From Clostridium sp. CAG:793 (GTDB lineage: Bacteria > Bacillota > Clostridia > TANB77 > CAG-508): 64,000 nucleotides of DNA. Position 1 is the stretch's first letter; each line of letters starts with the position of its first letter. The DNA lies in NCBI GenBank assembly GCA_000433915.1, contig HF993646.1:69357-133356 (forward strand). Direction: 5' to 3'. The notes below the pieces were generated by a model, which saw only the letters and a program-made list of their open reading frames with translations, made no database searches and had not been told where the DNA came from. Made by a program: the position numbers and the translations under genes. This document shows positions 129 to 49,807 of the stretch, piece after piece.

Positions 129-203
129 TGGTGACCCCGACGGGAATCGAACCCATGATTCAGCCTTGAGAGGGCTACGTCTTAACCGCTTGACCACGGG
201 GCC
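129..203 (-). tRNA. tRNA-Glu (anticodon CUC)
   Basis: The reverse complement folds as a cloverleaf: acceptor GGCCCCG/CGGGGTC, anticodon stem TAGCC/GGCTG, loop CTCTCAA, T-loop GGTTCGATTCC, encoded CCA. Confidence 0.9.
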
Positions 204-2367: not shown

Positions 2368-5010
2368 ATGGCAGAAAATGAATTAGAAAATGCACTAAAA
2401 GATTTGGATATAAATAAATTTTCACCTATGATGCAGCATTACATATCAACTAGAAGAAAATATCCTGATAGTATATTATTTTATCGATTAGGAGACTTTT
2501 ATGAAATGTTTTTTGATGATGCATTACGTGTTTCAAGAGAGTTAGAGTTAACTCTTACAGGAAAAGATTGTGGTCAAGAAGAAAGAGCTCCAATGTGTGG
2601 AATTCCATATCATGCAGCAGAAGGATATATTTGCAAATTAGTTGAAAAAGGCTACAAAGTTGCTATATGTGAACAGCTAGAAGATCCAAAACAAGCTAAG
2701 GGAATAGTAAAACGTGATGTTATAAAGGTTATAACACCAGGAACCATTGTTGATGGTAGCTTGCTTGAAGAGAAAAAAAATAATTATATTATGAGCATTT
2801 ATAAAGAAGGAATTTATTTTGGTGTTGCAATCTGTGACATTTCGACAGGTGATTTTTATGCAACAGAAATAAAAGAAGATAATAATTTCGCAAAATTATT
2901 AGATGAAATATCTAGATACAATCCATCAGAACTTGTAATTAATCAAATGCTTGCTGATTCAACAGAAGAAGTGAATGAGATTAAACAAAGATTTAATACA
3001 TATATTTCTAAGGAAAATGAAGAAGTTTTCTCACAAGAATCAAAAAATATAAAGTCTACATTTGATGTTGTAGATAAAGATGGAAATGAATACAAAGATT
3101 TTGACAAGCATTTATTTGTAATATCAGCTATAAATGGTTTAATGAATTATATTGAAGATACTCAAAAGGAAAGACCTGATAATTTAAATAAAATAACAAT
3201 ATATGAAGCTACTAAATATATGGCTTTAGATATAAATGCACGAAGAAACCTTGAACTTACAGAAAAGCTTAGAGATAAATCAAAAAAAGGGACTCTACTA
3301 TGGGTGCTTGATAAAACATCAACCTCTATGGGGGGAAGACTTTTAAGAAGATGGATAAGCGACCCTTTGGTGGATGTAAATGATATACAGAATAGACTTG
3401 GAGCAGTAAAAGAATTAAAGGAAAATGATATTCTAAGAGACGATGTTATAAATTCTTTGAAAAATGTATATGATATAGAAAGATTAGCAGGTAAGATTTC
3501 GTATGGCACAGCTAATGCGAGAGATTTGATTTCACTAAAAAATTCTGTATCACAGTTGCCTGAATTAAAAGATACACTTTCTAGAGCAAATTCTAATATG
3601 CTAAGTACAATGTATAGAGCATTAGATACTTTAGATGACATATTTAATTTGATAAATATTGCAATAGTTGATGATCCGCCAATGTCGGTAAAAGAAGGTG
3701 GATTAATAAAAAAAGGATATGATGAACAAATTGATGAACTTATTGACTTAACTACTAACGGAAAGAAATGGCTACTTGATATTGAAGCTAAGGAAAAAGA
3801 GCTAACTGGAATTAAAAATTTGAAAATTGGATATAATAAAATATTTGGCTATTATATTGAAGTTAGTAAATCTTTTGTAAAAATGGTTCCAACAGATAGA
3901 TATATAAGAAAGCAAACTTTAACAACTGGTGAAAGATATATAACAGAAGAGCTTAAGAATATGGAAAATCAGATTGTTGGGGCACAGGAAAGAATTGTAA
4001 ATCTTGAATATGACACATTTGCAAAAATAAGAGATCAAATTGAAGAAAATGCAAAAAGATTACAAACAGCAGCTAGTATAGTTGCTAAAGTTGATGTACT
4101 TTGCTCATTAGCAATTGTTGCAAAAGATCAAAATTATTGTATGCCAGTTGTTGATAATTCAGATGTAATAGATATAAAAGAAGGTCGTCATCCAGTAGTA
4201 GAAAAGATATTACATGCTGGTGCATTTGTTCAAAATGATGCATACTTAGATGCTACTGAAAATAGATTAAATATAATTACGGGACCTAATATGGCTGGTA
4301 AATCAACGTATATGAGGCAAGTAGCTTTAATTACACTTATGGCTCAAATAGGAAGTTTTGTACCGGCTACATCTGCTAGAATAGGCGTAGTTGACAAAAT
4401 CTTTACAAGAGTTGGAGCATCAGATGATTTAAGTATGGGTGAAAGTACGTTTATGGTTGAAATGATGGAGGTTGCAACTATTCTAAATAATGCAACAAGC
4501 AAAAGCTTAGTTATTTTAGATGAAATAGGAAGAGGAACATCTACGTATGATGGAATGTCAATTGCATGGGCTGTTGCAGAATATATTACTAAAATAAAGG
4601 CAAAAACATTATTTGCAACACATTATCATGAATTAACAAGCTTGGAAGGAATGTTAGAAGGAACTAAAAATTATCATGTTGCTGTAAAAGAAAGAGGAGA
4701 AGATGTTATATTCCTTAGAAAAATACTTCCTGGAGGAACAGATGAAAGCTATGGTGTGCATGTCGCTAAATTAGCAGGAGTTCCTAAAGAAGTAACTAAG
4801 AGAGCAAATGAAATTTTAAGAAGCTTGGAAAGAAAGAGTGCATTAAAAGAAGAGCCAAAAAGTAATAAACAAGAAGATCAAGGACAATTAAGCATGTATA
4901 ATTATAAACTTGCTGAAATTGCACATGAATTAGATAAGATTAAATTAGATGAAATCACACCGATTGATGCTTTAAATATTTTATCTAAAATTAAAGAAAA
5001 AATGATGTAA
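2368..5010 (+). CDS. mutS: DNA mismatch repair protein MutS
   Basis: GDFYEMF mismatch-binding motif, Walker A GPNMAGKSTY, 880 aa. Confidence 0.96.
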   Translation: MAENELENALKDLDINKFSPMMQHYISTRRKYPDSILFYRLGDFYEMFFDDALRVSRELELTLTGKDCGQEERAPMCGIPYHAAEGYICKLVEKGYKVAICEQLEDPKQAKGIVKRDVIKVITPGTIVDGSLLEEKKNNYIMSIYKEGIYFGVAICDISTGDFYATEIKEDNNFAKLLDEISRYNPSELVINQMLADSTEEVNEIKQRFNTYISKENEEVFSQESKNIKSTFDVVDKDGNEYKDFDKHLFVISAINGLMNYIEDTQKERPDNLNKITIYEATKYMALDINARRNLELTEKLRDKSKKGTLLWVLDKTSTSMGGRLLRRWISDPLVDVNDIQNRLGAVKELKENDILRDDVINSLKNVYDIERLAGKISYGTANARDLISLKNSVSQLPELKDTLSRANSNMLSTMYRALDTLDDIFNLINIAIVDDPPMSVKEGGLIKKGYDEQIDELIDLTTNGKKWLLDIEAKEKELTGIKNLKIGYNKIFGYYIEVSKSFVKMVPTDRYIRKQTLTTGERYITEELKNMENQIVGAQERIVNLEYDTFAKIRDQIEENAKRLQTAASIVAKVDVLCSLAIVAKDQNYCMPVVDNSDVIDIKEGRHPVVEKILHAGAFVQNDAYLDATENRLNIITGPNMAGKSTYMRQVALITLMAQIGSFVPATSARIGVVDKIFTRVGASDDLSMGESTFMVEMMEVATILNNATSKSLVILDEIGRGTSTYDGMSIAWAVAEYITKIKAKTLFATHYHELTSLEGMLEGTKNYHVAVKERGEDVIFLRKILPGGTDESYGVHVAKLAGVPKEVTKRANEILRSLERKSALKEEPKSNKQEDQGQLSMYNYKLAEIAHELDKIKLDEITPIDALNILSKIKEKMM

Positions 5011-5022
5011 AGGAGAATACTT

Positions 5023-6669
5023 ATGAAAATATATTATCAAGGAAAAGAAGTAGGGTTACCAGCAGGAGTAACTTGTGTAGCAGAGATGTTTAAAGAAAAC
5101 TTACGTATATTTCCTAAACATGTTATAGCATGCAAATGCAATAATGAAGTAAAATCATTAGAATATGAAATAAAAGAAGGCGATAGTGTAGAGCTTTTGG
5201 ATTTAACAAGTAAAGATGGTATGCTTGTATATATTAGAGGAGCTTTGTTCTTAGCATGTATGGCATTTAATGAGTTATATCCAAATTCACAATTAAGTGT
5301 AAATTTCCAACTATCAAATGCTATGTTTTGTGAATTAAAGAATATGGAACTTACAGACGAAATGATTGATAATGTAAGAAACAAAATGCATGAATATGTT
5401 GAAAAAGACTTGCATATAACAAAGAAAATGATGACAAAATCTGAGGCTAAGGAGTTTTATGATAGAGAGAAAACACTTAGAGGAATATTACAATTAAGCA
5501 ATGATGAAAAAGATACAGTTACATTATATTATTGCCAAGATTATTATAATTATTTTTATGGTGTAATGCCTATAAGCACTGGATTTATTGATATATTTGA
5601 TATTGAAAAATATAAAACAGGATTTATCGTTAGATATCCTAATAGAAAAAATCCAGAAGAATTAGGAGAATTTAAGGAAAGTAAAAAGTTTTTAGCAACA
5701 TTGAAGGAATATGAGGATATTAACAGTTTAATGCATGTACAAACAATTTATCATGTAAATAATGCAATAGCTAAAGATGGAGGTAAGGATCTTATTCTAA
5801 CTTCAGAAGCTTTAAATGAAAAGAAAATTGCAGAAATGGCTGATAAGATTGCTAAAAGGCCAGGAATAAAAATGGTATTAATAGCAGGACCATCATCATC
5901 AGGAAAAACAACTTTTGCAAAAAGACTAGGGATTCAATTAAAGGTAAATGGACTAAAGCCTGTAACAATTGGAACTGATGACTATTTTGTAGAAAGACCA
6001 ATGACTCCTAGAGATGAGAATGGAGATTATGATTTTGAAACAATTGAAGCATTAGACTTAGAGTTATTTAATGAACATCTAACAAAATTAATAAATGGTG
6101 AAACTGTTCAAATGCCTACTTTTGATTTCAAAGAAGGAACAAAAAAATATTTAGGAAAAGAACTTCACTTAGCAGATGATGAAATTCTTGTAATAGAAGG
6201 AATACATTGCTTAAATGATAGATTAACAGAAAGTATACCAGCAGAAAATAAATTTAAAATTTATATAAGTGATTTAACGGTATTAAATATTGACTACTTT
6301 AATAGAATATCAACAACTGATACAAGATTAGTTCGTAGAATGGTAAGAGACTATAATTTTAGAGGATATTCTGCTTTAGACACATTAAAGAGATGGCCAT
6401 CAGTAAACGCAGGAGAAGACAAAAATATATTCCCTTATCAAGAAGAGGCTGATGCTATGTTTAATAGCTCACTAGTGTATGAATTGCCAGTACTTGCAAA
6501 GCATGCTTTACCACTTTTAAGAGAAATAAAAGATACTGAAAAGGAATACTCAGAGGCTAAACGTATAATATCTTTCTTAGAGTATTTTGATCAAATTGAA
6601 GATGAAAGTCCAATACCTAATAATTCATTATTACGTGAATTTATAGGAGGTAGTGTATTTGGATATTAA
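5023..6669 (+). CDS. uridine kinase / phosphoribulokinase-family ATPase with an N-terminal TGS-like domain
   Basis: P-loop GPSSSGKTTFAKRL in the C-terminal half; the N-terminal beta-grasp-like region resembles ThrRS/TGS. Confidence 0.7.
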   Translation: MKIYYQGKEVGLPAGVTCVAEMFKENLRIFPKHVIACKCNNEVKSLEYEIKEGDSVELLDLTSKDGMLVYIRGALFLACMAFNELYPNSQLSVNFQLSNAMFCELKNMELTDEMIDNVRNKMHEYVEKDLHITKKMMTKSEAKEFYDREKTLRGILQLSNDEKDTVTLYYCQDYYNYFYGVMPISTGFIDIFDIEKYKTGFIVRYPNRKNPEELGEFKESKKFLATLKEYEDINSLMHVQTIYHVNNAIAKDGGKDLILTSEALNEKKIAEMADKIAKRPGIKMVLIAGPSSSGKTTFAKRLGIQLKVNGLKPVTIGTDDYFVERPMTPRDENGDYDFETIEALDLELFNEHLTKLINGETVQMPTFDFKEGTKKYLGKELHLADDEILVIEGIHCLNDRLTESIPAENKFKIYISDLTVLNIDYFNRISTTDTRLVRRMVRDYNFRGYSALDTLKRWPSVNAGEDKNIFPYQEEADAMFNSSLVYELPVLAKHALPLLREIKDTEKEYSEAKRIISFLEYFDQIEDESPIPNNSLLREFIGGSVFGY

Positions 6670-6693
6670 GCGATGTAATGAAAGGAGCAGAAT

Positions 6694-7002
6694 ATGAAGA
6701 ATTTTACTAAAAGAGATGAAAGTTTTGTATGTGAAAATTGTAATGTACAAGTTGAAAAATTAGGATATACTTCAAGAGACCACTGCCCACATTGCTTATG
6801 CTCAAAACATGTTGATAATATGCCAGGTGACAGGAGCGAAACTTGTCATGGCATATTAAGACCTATTCAGGTTGAGCTAGATAACAAAAAAGGATATGTA
6901 ATTATATATAAATGTGATAAATGTGGTGCGATACGAAAAAACAAAGCCGCAGATGATGATAACAAAGATTTGCTTATAGAATTAACAGTTTGCAAACAAT
7001 AA
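6694..7002 (+). CDS. RNHCP-domain zinc-ribbon protein
   Basis: SRDHCPHCLCSKH motif plus CENC and CDKC pairs, 102 aa. Confidence 0.65.
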   Translation: MKNFTKRDESFVCENCNVQVEKLGYTSRDHCPHCLCSKHVDNMPGDRSETCHGILRPIQVELDNKKGYVIIYKCDKCGAIRKNKAADDDNKDLLIELTVCKQ

Positions 7003-7018
7003 TAACGGAGGTACATAT

Positions 7019-8062
7019 ATGGAAGGTAATGATGAAAAAATAATGATTGAAGACGTTCTGCCTGATAAAAGTAAGAGAATACTTACAGGTGATAGACCTA
7101 CAGGAAGATTACATATTGGGCATTACTTTGGTTCTCTAAAGAGTAGAGTAAAATTGCAAGATCAATTTGAAACATTTATTGAAGTTGCAGATGTACAAGC
7201 TTTAACTGATAATTTTAATAATCCAGATAAAGTAAAACAGAATGTAACTCAAATTTTGATGGATGAACTTGCTGTTGGAATAGATCCTAATAAGGTAACA
7301 TTTCTATTGCAATCAATGGTTCCAGAAATAGCTGAATTAACAGTATTTTATTCAAATCTTGTAACAATAGCAAGACTACAGAGAAATCCAACAGTGAAAA
7401 CAGAAATTGCACAAAAAAAGGATTTATTTGGTGAAAGTGTAACTTATGGATTTTTAGGATATCCAGTTAGTCAGGCTGCTGATATTACTGCTTTTGAAGC
7501 GGAAATAGTTCCAGTTGGAGAGGATCAATTACCTTTGATTGAACAATGCAGAGAAATTGTTAGAAAATTTAATTCTATTTATGGAGATACTTTAAAAGAG
7601 CCTAAAGCAGTATTAAGCAGTAATGCTCGTATAAAAGGTCTTGATGGAAATGAGAAAATGGGTAAATCCCTTGGAAATGCTTTGTATTTATCAGATGATT
7701 TTGATACAATAAAAGCAAAAGTAATGTCTGCAGTAACAGATCCAGCTAGAATTAAGAAAGATGATCCGGGTAATCCAGATATATGTATGGTTTATTATTA
7801 TCATAAATTATTTAGCACAAGTGATGAGTGCCATAATATTTGTGAAGAATGTAAAGCTGGAAAAAGAGGATGTGTTTCATGCAAGAAGCAATTAATTGAA
7901 AGTGTAAATAATACTTTAGAGCCTATAAGAGATAAAAGACATTATTATGAAGAAAGACCAAATGAGGTAATGGATATATTAATGTCAGGAACAAAACATG
8001 CAAGAGAAATAGCAAAGCAAACAATGGAAAAAGTTAAGAAGTCAATGAAATTAGATTATTAA
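7019..8062 (+). CDS. trpS: tryptophan--tRNA ligase
   Basis: Class I motifs GRLHIGH and KMGKS. A C-terminal Cys cluster C-x6-C-x2-C is present. Confidence 0.9.
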   Translation: MEGNDEKIMIEDVLPDKSKRILTGDRPTGRLHIGHYFGSLKSRVKLQDQFETFIEVADVQALTDNFNNPDKVKQNVTQILMDELAVGIDPNKVTFLLQSMVPEIAELTVFYSNLVTIARLQRNPTVKTEIAQKKDLFGESVTYGFLGYPVSQAADITAFEAEIVPVGEDQLPLIEQCREIVRKFNSIYGDTLKEPKAVLSSNARIKGLDGNEKMGKSLGNALYLSDDFDTIKAKVMSAVTDPARIKKDDPGNPDICMVYYYHKLFSTSDECHNICEECKAGKRGCVSCKKQLIESVNNTLEPIRDKRHYYEERPNEVMDILMSGTKHAREIAKQTMEKVKKSMKLDY

Positions 8063-8065
8063 TAA

Positions 8066-9364
<1,299 letters not shown>

Positions 9365-27242: not shown

Positions 27243-27316
<74 letters not shown>

Positions 27317-36090: not shown

Positions 36091-36167
36091 GCGCCTTTAG
36101 CTCAGCTGGTCAGAGCAACCGGCTCATAACCGGTCGGTCCAAGGTTCGAATCCTTGAAGGCGCACCA
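36091..36167 (+). tRNA. tRNA with CAU anticodon, probably tRNA-Ile2 (lysidine type) rather than initiator Met
   Basis: G1-C72 are paired and there is no GGG/CCC anticodon stem, so it is not an initiator. Loop CTCATAA. Overall it resembles Bacillus tRNA-Ile(CAU). Confidence 0.85.
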
Positions 36168-36232: not shown

Positions 36233-36318
36233 GGGCAGATGGCCGAGTGGCTAAAGGCGGCAGACTGTAAATCTGTTCTCATTTGAGTACGATGGTTCGA
36301 ATCCATCTCTGCCCACCA
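36233..36318 (+). tRNA. tRNA-Tyr (anticodon GUA)
   Basis: 86 nt with a long variable arm, loop CTGTAAA, GGTTCGAATCC, CCA. Confidence 0.92.
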
Positions 36319-45667: not shown

Positions 45668-47209
45668 ATGCAAATTGTAATTTATATCACTATTTTTCTA
45701 GTCTCAGCGATAATATTTTCAATTATTGGATACATGGCAAGAAAGAAGATTGCAGAGTCAAAGATTGAGGGTGCAGAGAAAGAAGCACTAAGAATACTTG
45801 AAAATGCCAATAAGGAAGCAGAAAATGCAAAGAAGGAAGAAATTGTTCGTGCTAAAGAAGAAATTATAAGAGCAAGAAATGATTTGGAAGATGAGATTAG
45901 AGAAAGAAGAAGTGATGTTCAACAACAAGAAAAAAGATTGATTCAAAAAGAAGAAAATTTGGAAAAGAAAATTTATAATGCAGAGCAAAGAGAAAAGCAA
46001 TTGGACAAACGTGAAGATGGCATTGAGTCTACTAGACAAGAGGTTGAAAAACTAAAAGATGCACAACTTGACGAATTAGAGAGAATAGCAAGATTAACGG
46101 AGAATGAAGCTAAGGAACAATTACTTGCTAAAATTGATGAAACTCTTACAGCAGAAAAAGCTGAAAAAATAAGAGCGATAGAGGAGCATATAAAAGATAA
46201 AGCAGAAGAAACTGCTAAAAATGTTATAACATATGCTATTCAAAAATGTGCTGCAGATCATACCTCAGAAGCTACAGTTTCTATTGTTTCATTACCAAGT
46301 GATGATATGAAGGGAAGAATAATTGGTAGAGAAGGTAGAAATATTAAAGCTCTCGAAACTCTTACAGGTGTTGACTTTATTATTGATGATACACCAGAAG
46401 CAGTTGTTATATCAGGGTTTGATCCACTTAGAAGAGAAGTTGCAAGGATAGCGCTTGAAAAACTTATTGAAGATGGAAGAATACATCCATCAAAGATTGA
46501 AGAAATGGTTGAAAAGGCTAAAGAACAATTAGCTAAAACAATCAAGGAAGAGGGCGAAAGAGCTGCAATGGAAGCAGGTGTTATTAATTTACACCCAGAC
46601 ATTATAAATTTACTTGGAAAGCTAAAGTATAGGACAAGCTATGGACAAAATGTATTAATGCACTCTATTGAAGTTTCTAATTTAGCTAGAATAATGGCTG
46701 ATGAATTAGGACTTGATGTAAAACTTGCAAGACGTGCAGGATTATTACATGATATAGGAAAAGCATTAGACCATGACATGGAAGGAACTCATGTTGAAAT
46801 CGGTGTTGATATATTGAAAAAATATAAGGAAGATCCAAGAGTTATAAATGCTGTAGAAGCTCACCATGGAGATGTTGAACCGCAAACACCAGAAGCATGT
46901 TTAGTACAAGCAGCAGATGCTATATCAGCTTCAAGACCAGGAGCAAGACGAGAAACACTAGAAGCATATATCAAGAGATTAGAGCAATTGGAATCAATAG
47001 CAGATTCTTTTGATGGGGTTGAAAAATCATATGCAATTCAAGCTGGTAGAGAGATTAGAATTATTGTAAGACCAGAAAAGATTTCAGATGATCAAATGAC
47101 TATAATTGCTAGAAAGATTGCTAAAAAAATCGAAGAAGAAATGGATTATCCAGGACAAATAAAAGTAAACATGATTAGAGAAAAACGTGTTGTTGATTAT
47201 GCAAGATAA
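45668..47209 (+). CDS. rny: ribonuclease Y
   Basis: N-terminal TM, long coiled coil, KH domain ([11 protein letters not shown]) and HD domain (LLHDIGKA). Confidence 0.97.
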
Positions 47210-47220
47210 TTTATAAAATA

Positions 47221-47257
47221 AAAGATTCTATAATAGAAATATTATGGAATCTTTTTT
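47221..47257 (+). terminator. intrinsic terminator after rny
   Basis: 14-bp stem AAAGATTCTATAAT/ATTATGGAATCTTT followed by a T-run. Confidence 0.8.
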
Positions 47258-47421
47258 GGACAATTATGGATATTAATATAAAATCAAAAAATAAAGAAAA
47301 AATGAGAAAATAAAAGAAATATTGAGAAAAACATACAGAATAAGCATTACAAAATACTGCAAAGTCAAAGGAAATGGAATAAATCACTTTACACAATAAT
47401 ATAAATATTGTATACTATATC

Positions 47422-47986
47422 TTGTTGGTGCAGTATTCTAGTGATATTGCTTATTATGAGAGTGGGGCTAAAAATCCACTAAAAGGCTGACACGAATTTT
47501 ATATTTTGCGCGGGACGCCAAGCTTGTGTGATATATAAAATATGAGAATAGGAAAATATATAATGGCATATATATTAACTCCTCTTTTCGCATAGTCTAT
47601 CAATAGCCTGTTTTGAGTGATAGTCTTGGGATTAACTTAAAAAATAAGATTATTTGGCCAAATAGTTTTATTATTTGTTATGAAATCACTATTGCAAAAA
47701 GAACTAGTAATAAACGTAATATTTCAAGGAAATCTTCTAGACTGTTTGCATCAAATGTGAGAAGTTTTATGGATTAAGATACGGATTTAAGTGGCAATCT
47801 GGTAGCCAAATTTTTGGATGCTCTGATTAAATGGAAACAACTAAACAGTAATGGTTAGTTCGGAGTAGAGAAATTCGACTAGACCTAAACCGTAAAATTT
47901 ACGTATAACTTTACCAACAAAATAAATAAAAAATAAGTAGAGAATTGATATCAAGCGGTAAGTTAAACTTATCGTTTTATTTTTTA
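47422..47986 (+). ncRNA. candidate large structured non-coding RNA (family unassigned)
   Basis: Promoter TTTACA-17-TATACT (47388-47416). Closing helix 47422-29/47913-20, nested helices 47434-42/47703-12 and 47714-24/47895-904, terminator 47954-86. No + strand ORF of 60 aa or more. Confidence 0.4.
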
Positions 47987-48067
47987 TAAAGCTTTGGATA
48001 GACAAAGTAGGAAAAGTATTATATAATGACGAGGAGGAATAAACCAATTTTAATTGGTTATGAAAAA

Positions 48068-48619
48068 ATGAAGGAAAAACAAAAAGAAAAGAGAAAAATG
48101 AATGAAGAGCTGAAATGGTTTATACAGGTATCTATAATTGCATTTGTATTATCAATTATATTTTCATTTATTTCAAACAGTGCGGTATCTAGCTTGCCAC
48201 TTATACCAGCAATACTAGTATTAATATTAGTAGTATTTATTGGAATAATATTTGATGTAATAGGTGTTGCTGTTACTGTAGCTGATGAAAAGGAATTTCA
48301 TGCAAAAGCAACTAAGAAGTTACCAGGAGCTAAAACATCAATTAATTTAATAAAAAATGCTGGGAAAGTTTCAAATATATGTGCCGATGTAATAGGAGAT
48401 ATATGTGGAGTTTTAAGTGGAGCTATAAGTGCTGGAATTGCTATAAAAATAATGAATGCGATGAACATTTCAACTAATATTCAATTCATCATAAGTGCAT
48501 TAGTTGCTTCAATGACAATTGGTGGCAAGGCACTAGGTAAAGGATTTGCAAGAAAACATTCAACTGAAATTATAATGATTATAGGAAAAATATTGAGCAA
48601 ATTTAAAAAAGAAAAATAG
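48068..48619 (+). CDS. small four-TM membrane protein of unknown function
   Basis: Four hydrophobic segments and a D-V-I-G-D motif in the third. Own promoter TTGGAT-17-TATTAT at 47993-48021. Start uncertain (48026, 48068 or 48098). Confidence 0.7.
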   Translation: MKEKQKEKRKMNEELKWFIQVSIIAFVLSIIFSFISNSAVSSLPLIPAILVLILVVFIGIIFDVIGVAVTVADEKEFHAKATKKLPGAKTSINLIKNAGKVSNICADVIGDICGVLSGAISAGIAIKIMNAMNISTNIQFIISALVASMTIGGKALGKGFARKHSTEIIMIIGKILSKFKKEK

Positions 48620-48639: not shown

Positions 48640-49404
48640 ATGAAGATATTGGCTATAGGAGATCTAGTTGGTGAAAATGGATTAGCTAAGTTAAAAAAAG
48701 ATTTGGATAATATACAGGAAGCTGAAAATATAGATTTCACAATTGTTAATGCTGAAAATGTAGCAGGTGGAATGGGAATTACCATAAAAATATTTCAAGA
48801 ACTTAAAAATATGGATATAGATGTACTAACTATGGGAAATCATACATGGGGAAAGAAAGATATATTTTCTTTTATAGATGATCCAATGCTGGTTAGACCA
48901 GCCAATTATTCGAAAGGTGTACCAGGACACGGATATACTATTCTTACTAAAAATAGTAAAACAATATGTGTAATTAATTTAATTGGTAGAACTGATATGG
49001 GAGTATTATCGGAAAATCCATTTACCGTGGTTGATAATATTTTAAAGAAAGTCTCAGCAGATATTTTCATTGTCGACTTCCATGCTGAGGCATCTGCGGA
49101 AAAAATTGCGATGGGCTATTACTTAAATGGAAGAGTTAATGCAGTTTATGGAACACATACACATGTACAAACTGCGGATGAAACTATCCTAGATAAAGGA
49201 ACAGCATACATAACTGATATAGGAATGACTGGACCTCGTAAGTCTGTAATTGGAATGGATGTAGATGCATCATTAAAACGTTTTGTTACATCTTTACCAG
49301 AAAGATATAAATTAGCAACAGGTGATTGCAAATTAAATGGTGTTGTCTTTGAGATAAATGACGAAAATTGTCGAACAGAGAAAGTATATAGAATAAATAT
49401 ATAA
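48640..49404 (+). CDS. ymdB: 2',3'-cyclic-nucleotide 2'-phosphodiesterase YmdB (TIGR00282 metallophosphoesterase)
   Basis: MKILAIGDLVG, NAENVAGG, GNHTW, DFHAEA, GTHTHVQTAD motifs. Confidence 0.93.
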   Translation: MKILAIGDLVGENGLAKLKKDLDNIQEAENIDFTIVNAENVAGGMGITIKIFQELKNMDIDVLTMGNHTWGKKDIFSFIDDPMLVRPANYSKGVPGHGYTILTKNSKTICVINLIGRTDMGVLSENPFTVVDNILKKVSADIFIVDFHAEASAEKIAMGYYLNGRVNAVYGTHTHVQTADETILDKGTAYITDIGMTGPRKSVIGMDVDASLKRFVTSLPERYKLATGDCKLNGVVFEINDENCRTEKVYRINI

Positions 49405-49546: not shown

Positions 49547-49807
49547 ATGGAAGTTTTAAAAATCTCATCAAAATCAAATCCAAATTCAGTAGCAGGAGCT
49601 ATTGCAGGGATGGTAAAGGAAACAAGAAAGGCAGAAATGCAAGCGATAGGAGCAGGAGCTCTTAATCAAGCTGTGAAGGCAGTGGCAATTGCGAGAGGAT
49701 TTGTAGCACCTACAGGAGTAGATCTAGTATGTATACCTGCATTTGCTGAAGTTCAAGTGGAGGGCGAAGATAGAACTGGAATTAGGCTAATTGTAGAATC
49801 AAGATAA
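49547..49807 (+). CDS. spoVS: stage V sporulation protein S
   Basis: 86 aa; MEVLKISSKSNPNSVAGAIAG...QAIGAGALNQAVKA is the conserved SpoVS sequence. Confidence 0.96.
   Translation: MEVLKISSKSNPNSVAGAIAGMVKETRKAEMQAIGAGALNQAVKAVAIARGFVAPTGVDLVCIPAFAEVQVEGEDRTGIRLIVESR

Follow-up and report, generated by a model that had tools for sequence, protein, structure and literature searches.

What occupies the long gap between rny and ymdB in Clostridium sp. CAG:793? We addressed this question in a stretch of 64,000 nucleotides (nt) of contig HF993646.1, hereafter the window, whose own positions are used for all coordinates. In this window rny stops at 47209 and the next supported gene, defined as one that encodes at least 120 amino acids (aa) and passes a family or homology test, begins at 48026 or 48068. 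The resulting gap of about 0.82-0.86 kb is the largest stretch of the window that is free of open reading frames (ORFs), as an earlier note on this DNA, made from the sequence alone, had pointed out. That note proposed for the gap a large structured RNA with closing ends, a promoter and a terminator, and after it the gene of a small membrane protein carrying a D-x3-D motif. It saw a likeness to OLE RNA and its partner OapA, and also suggested that both might be new. We are highly confident that the gap holds a gene for the known OLE RNA (ole), followed by oapA, the gene of its known membrane-protein partner. OLE RNA has been known since 2006. The RNA of the window is a member of this described and curated family, in a reduced form that is itself already known, and does not make a new class.

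The identification comes from Rfam 15: scanned with its models at gathering thresholds, the window as a whole gave four transfer RNAs (tRNAs) and one other match, OLE (Ornate Large Extremophilic RNA, RF01071). The match spans 525 nt of the + strand (47409-47933), covers model positions 1-616 and scores 248 bits (E-value 6e-69) for a gathering score of 50; the structured core, 47422-47920, has 499 nt. The helices, oapA, and the promoters and terminators described below are on the same strand. The comparison with the Rfam models of large RNAs that had been suggested was made by a permissive cmscan of 47200-48100, which at E<=1 returned OLE alone, and neither ROOL, GOLLD, raiA nor any other Rfam family. 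Since OLE is the sole match even at this threshold, these other curated families are excluded and chance is ruled out. Hosts of OLE are Bacillota, typically anaerobes or extremophiles. The present host belongs to Bacillota, as the genes around the pair (rny, ymdB, spoVS) are characteristic of Firmicutes and the 14 related loci described below all come from gut metagenome-assembled genomes of uncultured Clostridia or Clostridium.

The structure of the family is conserved along with its sequence. When the Rfam consensus pairs were transferred to the window, 113 of 120 were canonical. When the window was aligned with 12 sibling species (alignment A1, 13 species), 89.6% of the cells of the Rfam structure were paired and 24 pairs had changed on both sides, against 42-49% paired and 5-12 both-side changes in controls where the 3' partners were slid by 1-3 columns. 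None of 500 shuffles reached the observed values of pairing and covariation. Covariation and structure conserved across 13 species indicate a conserved, folded OLE RNA and not a decayed protein-coding gene, one of the outcomes that the earlier note had named as fatal to its own proposal.

The downstream gene (48068-48619) encodes 183 aa from the ATG at 48068 and is oapA. BLASTP against the published OapA (supplement of Kretsch et al. 2025, PMC12286853), a comparison that had also been called for, gave 37% identity over 179 columns (E-value 4e-32). The D-x3-D motif is DVIGD (residues 107-111, codons 48386-48400); it aligns with the DVIGD of the reference OapA, and D107-D111 is invariant in 40 homologues (alignment A3). 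These homologues share 46 invariant columns, and the basic stretch HAKATKKLPGAK is conserved among them, with HAKATKK..GAK kept. DxxxD is regarded as the distinctive feature of OapA, which should in addition have four transmembrane helices and a cluster of basic residues on the cytoplasmic side (PMC11332333; PMC12265935). In line with this, the hydropathy peaks and an AlphaFold2 model (predicted local distance difference test score, pLDDT, 84.7) with long helices at residues 2-42, 45-71, 98-132 and 139-163 give four predicted transmembrane segments and a multi-helix membrane fold of the kind first proposed. The likeness to OLE and OapA has therefore turned into identity, with a curated RNA family on one side and a homologue of its partner on the other, and is more than the resemblance that had been put forward.

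The fold of the protein is informative too, even though searches of Pfam, NCBIfam and PDB by sequence gave it no named family. Foldseek ranked four chains of CNNM-type proteins first to fourth, namely 7M1T_B, 7M1T_A, 7M1U_A (MtCorB) and 7CFF (CorC), with template modelling (TM) scores of 0.44-0.56 and probabilities of 0.85-1.00, and PF01595 (CNNM) weakly matched 28 of the 40 family members. The top structural match of the OapA of Halalkalibacterium halodurans is likewise of the CNNM type (CorB, 7M1U), a family whose domains lack DxxxD (PMC11332333). Two further matches of the product, to DUF3784 (below threshold) and to LolE (by chance), were rejected. As for its start, the ORF is open from 48026 (197-aa product) and has an alternative ATG at 48098. 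In the 197-aa product the conserved part starts at about residue 29, and the homologues carry about 13-17 residues before a conserved KWF, a length that makes the ATG at 48068 the best start. The only good Shine-Dalgarno sequence, GAGGAGG at 48031-38, stands about 30 nt 5' of it. A 7-bp hairpin (48042-48059, -5.6 kcal/mol) that is absent in the siblings lies in between, and could place the start codon close to the Shine-Dalgarno sequence, unless the start lies elsewhere.

How is the RNA built? Three nested closing helices surround a 5' domain, and a 3' domain follows. The outermost helix pairs 47422-47429 with 47913-47920 (duplex -8.7 kcal/mol). It had been proposed as the helix that closes the ends, and it corresponds to P1 of OLE. 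Its core of 6 bp is invariant in the clade, and two of its pairs have both bases replaced (G-C to A-U; U-A to A-U or G-C) with respect to the more distant OLE RNAs of loci L015, L017 and L018. The Rfam structure line leaves these bases unpaired, yet its consensus letters GUGGU...ACCAC are complementary; P2 and P3, described next, are likewise not part of the Rfam consensus structure. The second helix, which we number P2, joins GCAGU (47430-47434) to ACUGU (47741-47745) and is 100% paired in 16 sequences, with one pair changed from G-C to U-A in 3 of them. The third, probably the elongate P3/P3.1 of the literature, encloses the 5' domain and pairs 47443-47457 with 47707-47723 over 15 bp, with A47714 and C47715 bulged. 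It is 94.9% paired and 6 of its 15 pairs changed on both sides, versus 0-3 in slid controls; its cognate duplexes average -6.9 kcal/mol, versus -2.5 to -3.4 for non-cognate duplexes formed across clades.

Within the 5' domain, the hairpin at 47461-47480 (AGUGGG-GCUAAAAA-UCCACU, our P4/L4), which the earlier note had also seen, is an Rfam helix with an invariant A-rich loop and is nearly invariant in A1. The next two hairpins, numbered P5 and P6 (47498-47589), are Rfam helices with both-side changes and occupy 47498-47539 (loop GACGCCAAG) and 47544-47589 (loop AAUGGCAU). They are followed by a remnant of P7-P8 (47590-47609, as placed by the cmscan alignment and alignments A1 and A2) and by the three-part hairpin P9 (47610-47704), whose Rfam helices include 9 pairs changed on both sides. 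The apical loop of P9 carries the palindrome GGCC (47656-47659), invariant in 16 sequences; a 4-nt palindrome of this type in L9.3 forms the kissing loop of the OLE dimer (Kretsch et al. 2025, PMC12286853). The 3' domain (47761-47912) is made of nested helices (47761-71/47902-12, 47780-84/47890-94 and 47798-803/47878-83) and includes a hairpin at 47840-59 capped by GUAA.

This layout replaces part of the one that had been drawn from the sequence. Two long-range helices, 47434-42/47703-12 and 47714-24/47895-904, did not hold, as at least 319 of 500 shuffles reached each of their values and one pair showed a both-side change; their nucleotides are claimed by P2 and P3/P3.1, which are better supported. 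The core of the first consists of two copies of the palindrome CUAG, complementary by construction, which is the source of this spurious helix. The OapA binding sites mapped in published work are palindromes within or close to P2 and P4a (PMC12265935). The three-way junction built on these helices is lost with them, the supported long-range helices being nested instead. Of the remaining local hairpins, 47594-626 is specific to the window (15-47% paired in siblings) and 47853-85 is incompatible with Rfam helices that covary.

The downstream protein, used as query against the species representatives of GTDB, gave the 14 related loci. An OLE match stands upstream of the oapA homologue in 13 of them, directly so in 12, and OLE is found directly 5' of oapA in 3 more distant loci with other genomic contexts. 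In the window the oapA start lies 93-135 nt past the Rfam OLE match, on the same strand, and oapA is followed by ymdB (48640-49404) and spoVS (49547-49807). The order xerD-rny-ole-oapA-ymdB-spoVS is common to most of the 14 loci. Upstream of the pair, rny is missing in L008, L012 and L013, with polA in its place in L008 and an M23 peptidase gene in L012. The distant pairs adjoin genes of a short-chain dehydrogenase and a lactate dehydrogenase, or infC-rpmI-rplT. The constant feature across loci is ole followed by oapA, and the position between rny and ymdB, rightly described as unusual for OLE when compared with ispA-dxs, is specific to the lineage; it gives no evidence for a different RNA family. 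A full-text literature search, which did not cover the review that tabulates ole neighbours, found no mention of OLE together with rny, RNase Y, ymdB or spoVS.

The adjacency of the two genes is not absolute, given that L014 and L010 have inserted genes on both sides of oapA. In L014 a 494-aa gene on the opposite strand (3283-4767, minus) lies between ole and oapA, and about 3.4 kb of extra sequence (5534-8730), encoding two membrane proteins, a protein like sigma-70/extracytoplasmic function (ECF) factors and a possible anti-sigma factor, separates oapA from ymdB. No OLE was found in L010; its first ~415 nt, which form the end of the contig, show no alignment with L014. A relative with 99% identity, L021, begins too near oapA to include ole. 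In L018, where the pair sits after the translation-related genes infC-rpmI-rplT, a neighbourhood different from the window's, 5S ribosomal RNA and tRNA genes are found about 2 kb 3' of it (8478-8673). The exact 197-aa ORF product occurs in 1,236 public assembly blocks, on contigs of up to 0.29 Mb (loci L022-L025 are among these), with sample names resembling those of gut-cohort metagenomes; such numbers point to a very common species of uncultured gut Clostridia.

Several observations weigh against reading the locus as an OLE-OapA pair. The RNA has about 500 nt, below the family norm of about 600 nt, and lacks the full set of stems P1-P15. The equivalent of P13 (47805-18) reads GCCAA-AUUU-UUGGA, with neither a GNRA loop nor a bulge, and the OapB site is made precisely of a GNRA tetraloop plus a bulge of one nucleotide within P13 (PMC7936274); the hairpin that comes next still carries a GUAA loop (47848-51). 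The kink-turn bound by OapC, seen by cryo-electron microscopy, combines the strand AUCGAUGAAG of J4a/5 with GGAG of J6/7 (PMC12286853). In the alignment, which is the only basis for this point, the model strand AUCGAUGAAG stands opposite AC--ACGAAU and GGAGa is deleted, so that the OLE of the window apparently lacks this kink-turn, both strands of which are kept in L015, L017 and L018, the relatives with full-length OLE. In H. halodurans the loop and bulge of P13 are essential, and so are the strands of the kink-turn. Our helix numbers (P1-P9, P13) were deduced from text descriptions in the papers. On the protein side, the OapA of the window does not itself match the Pfam CNNM model at E<=1, and Foldseek gives it weak E-values (6e-3, TM score 0.49-0.56). 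Finally, the OLE transcript, its localisation and its binding to proteins are predicted here by homology.

These traits of the RNA are those of a recognised pattern of reduction. Where the model has 84 positions in and directly ahead of P7-P8 (4 deleted and, immediately after them, 80 in a local-end gap), the window has 9 nt. A single short hairpin (about 25 nt) is left in this region in the siblings and about 80 nt in more distant relatives, and the remnant of the window species is shorter than that of its own siblings by a further ~21-28 nt. The short form is not an assembly error, since it recurs in four independent metagenome assemblies, with 99.5-99.8% identity over 47380-48030. The direct repeat AUAGUCU (7 nt, at 47592-47598 and 47620-47626) flanks the site of this extra deletion, of which it may be a trace; it also generates the window-specific hairpin at 47594-626. 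Gut Clostridia whose genomes are small have been described to carry reduced OLE variants without P7/P8 and the OapB site (Fernando and Breaker 2024, mSphere; PMC11332333), and these hosts tend to lack OapB and OapC (PMC11332333). We found no homologue of OapC or bS21 in the 64-kb window. In its reduced form OLE probably works with OapA alone, or at least with fewer partners.

One could go further and propose that a minimal OLE, devoid of P7-P8, of the OapB site and of the kink-turn, acts with OapA alone, that both genes entered an rny-ymdB pair that is otherwise conserved, and that this placement reflects a functional link between the OLE particle and the RNase Y system, both of them membrane-bound. 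OLE might for instance be a substrate that RNase Y processes or turns over, or a modulator of RNase Y. We consider this extended proposal unlikely. The rny-ymdB position is specific to the clade, and 3 of the 12 siblings have other upstream neighbours.

The same losses could also mean that OLE is decaying here into a non-functional relic, deprived of P7-P8, of the OapB site and of the kink-turn and persisting as mere spacer DNA. Large deletions relative to the model, and the absence of binding sites essential in H. halodurans, are what such a relic would show, but we regard this outcome as very improbable. Long blocks remain invariant and both sides of 24 pairs have changed across the 13 species despite diverged flanks, the promoter and the terminator are maintained, and oapA is intact, with its invariant columns in 40 homologues. 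The near-identity of the four assemblies argues in the same direction, as does the fact that reduced variants are a recognised and widespread form of OLE.

The transcription signals of the locus bear on whether the RNA acts by itself. Just after rny, an AT-rich intrinsic terminator (47220-47257; 16-bp hairpin followed by a U run, RNAfold -16.0 kcal/mol), passed over by our consensus terminator scan because its stem has fewer than 3 G-C pairs, sets rny apart from the OLE transcription unit. The SigA-like promoter that had been noted at 47388-47416 was recovered by a consensus scan (-35 TTTACA, 17-nt spacer, -10 TATACT; 10 of 12 matches), with a predicted transcription start at about 47422-47424. 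In this AT-rich window (29.4% G+C) promoter matches are not more frequent than expected by chance (12 found versus 10.4 in shuffled sequence). Support for the ole promoter comes from its phylogenetic conservation: it is found in all 12 sibling species of A1, with an invariant -35 hexamer, TATAAT as -10 and variable flanks. The earlier note had placed a terminator with an 8-bp stem at 47954-47986. The terminator and its 3-nt loop stand, while the stem is longer (stem-loop 47953-47977 with 11 pairs, followed by a T run, the whole at 47953-47986). All 12 siblings have a hairpin and U run at this position, with different stem sequences. Taken together, the conserved promoter and terminator of ole and the separate terminator of rny make ole an autonomous transcription unit in this clade, and the general picture first proposed, a large structured RNA with closing ends and signals of its own, is borne out by the OLE match and by the conservation of these signals. 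The gene oapA has a candidate promoter (47999-48027, TAGACA-17-TATAAT, 11 of 12 matches), and the pair T(A/C)GACA...TATAAT is retained there in several siblings (alignment A4).

These signals leave hardly any room for a mainly cis-acting RNA, that is, a long leader controlling oapA by read-through of the terminator at 47953-86, which we deem extremely improbable. In its favour, ole and oapA are on one strand, 90-140 nt apart, the cluster of H. halodurans is transcribed as one polycistronic RNA (PMC12265935), and a simple search found no terminator between the two genes in L015, L017 and L018. Against these stand the terminator after ole in all 13 species of the clade, several of which keep a separate promoter-like site for oapA, the opposite-strand gene that comes between ole and oapA in L014, and the nature of OLE in the model organism, where it is a stable and abundant RNA within a ribonucleoprotein particle (PMC12265935). 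As for a new class of large RNA with a new membrane partner merely resembling OLE and OapA, its chances are practically nil: it could draw on a locus outside the ispA-dxs context of H. halodurans and on a protein unnamed by database searches, and it is refuted by an OLE covariance model matched end to end with no competing family, by the homology of the protein to the published OapA, and by relatives with 62-64% identical OapA (L015, L017, L018) whose OLE RNAs are full-length (608-616 nt, 333-363 bits).

What could this pair do in a gut bacterium? Our analysis bears on the identity of the RNA, the conservation of its structure, its transcription signals and its partner gene; for its expression, binding, localisation and function we infer from homologous systems. 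By analogy with H. halodurans and Clostridium acetobutylicum, the RNA would fold and dimerise, with the GGCC kissing loop as one of the contacts, and dimers of OapA would bind it and keep it at the cell membrane. The resulting particle would, as in the homologous systems, help cells to withstand stresses such as cold, a surplus of Mg2+, short-chain alcohols or poor carbon sources. The presence of OLE is known to anticorrelate with that of the Mg2+ exporter MpfA. This anticorrelation and the CNNM-like fold of OapA lead us to favour a role in Mg2+ and stress homeostasis in which the RNA, bound to the membrane, scaffolds or regulates OapA.

As a discovery the locus has little value, since the family is in Rfam and its reduced variants in gut clades were described in 2024. 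Its practical value is modest: it provides a naturally minimised OLE of about 500 nt, with clean transcription signals, in a very common gut bacterium, and it apparently does without two of the three sites for accessory proteins with which the model organism cannot dispense. A minimal copy of this kind helps to define the irreducible core of OLE (P1-P6, P9, the 3' domain and OapA) and could be a simpler subject for structural work. For completeness, the four tRNA genes of the Rfam scan are at 132-203 (minus strand), 27243-27313, 36091-36164 and 36233-36315.

Comparison with known systems places the locus within the OLE family. With the full-length OLE RNAs of H. halodurans and C. acetobutylicum it shares the covariance model, the conserved blocks, the order of helices and the closing ends, as well as the GGCC kissing loop and an oapA gene directly downstream on the same strand. 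It differs by its length (about 500 nt versus about 600 nt, with P7-P8 cut to about 20 nt), by a P13 equivalent without GNRA loop or bulge, and by kink-turn strands that are both, in the alignment, changed or deleted. The genetic setting differs as well: ole of H. halodurans belongs to a polycistronic operon, between ispA and dxs, whereas that of the window has its own promoter and terminator and lies between rny and ymdB. With OLE variants 1 and 2 (Fernando and Breaker 2024; gut clades TANB77 and RF39) it shares shortened or absent P7/P8 and missing nucleotides at the OapB site of P13, and their hosts are likewise uncultured gut Clostridia with AT-rich genomes; the window species stands apart from these variants by its extra deletion of ~21-28 nt relative to its own siblings. 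The protein resembles OapA in its 37% identity over nearly the full length, in DxxxD, in the basic cluster HAKATKKLPGAK, in its four long hydrophobic helices, in the CNNM-like fold of its model and in its position directly after ole. The CNNM Mg2+ transporters MpfA, CorB and CorC provide its best structural matches (7M1T, 7M1U, 7CFF) at 14-20% sequence identity. In contrast with them, the OapA of the window consists of the membrane domain only, with no CBS or CorC domains.

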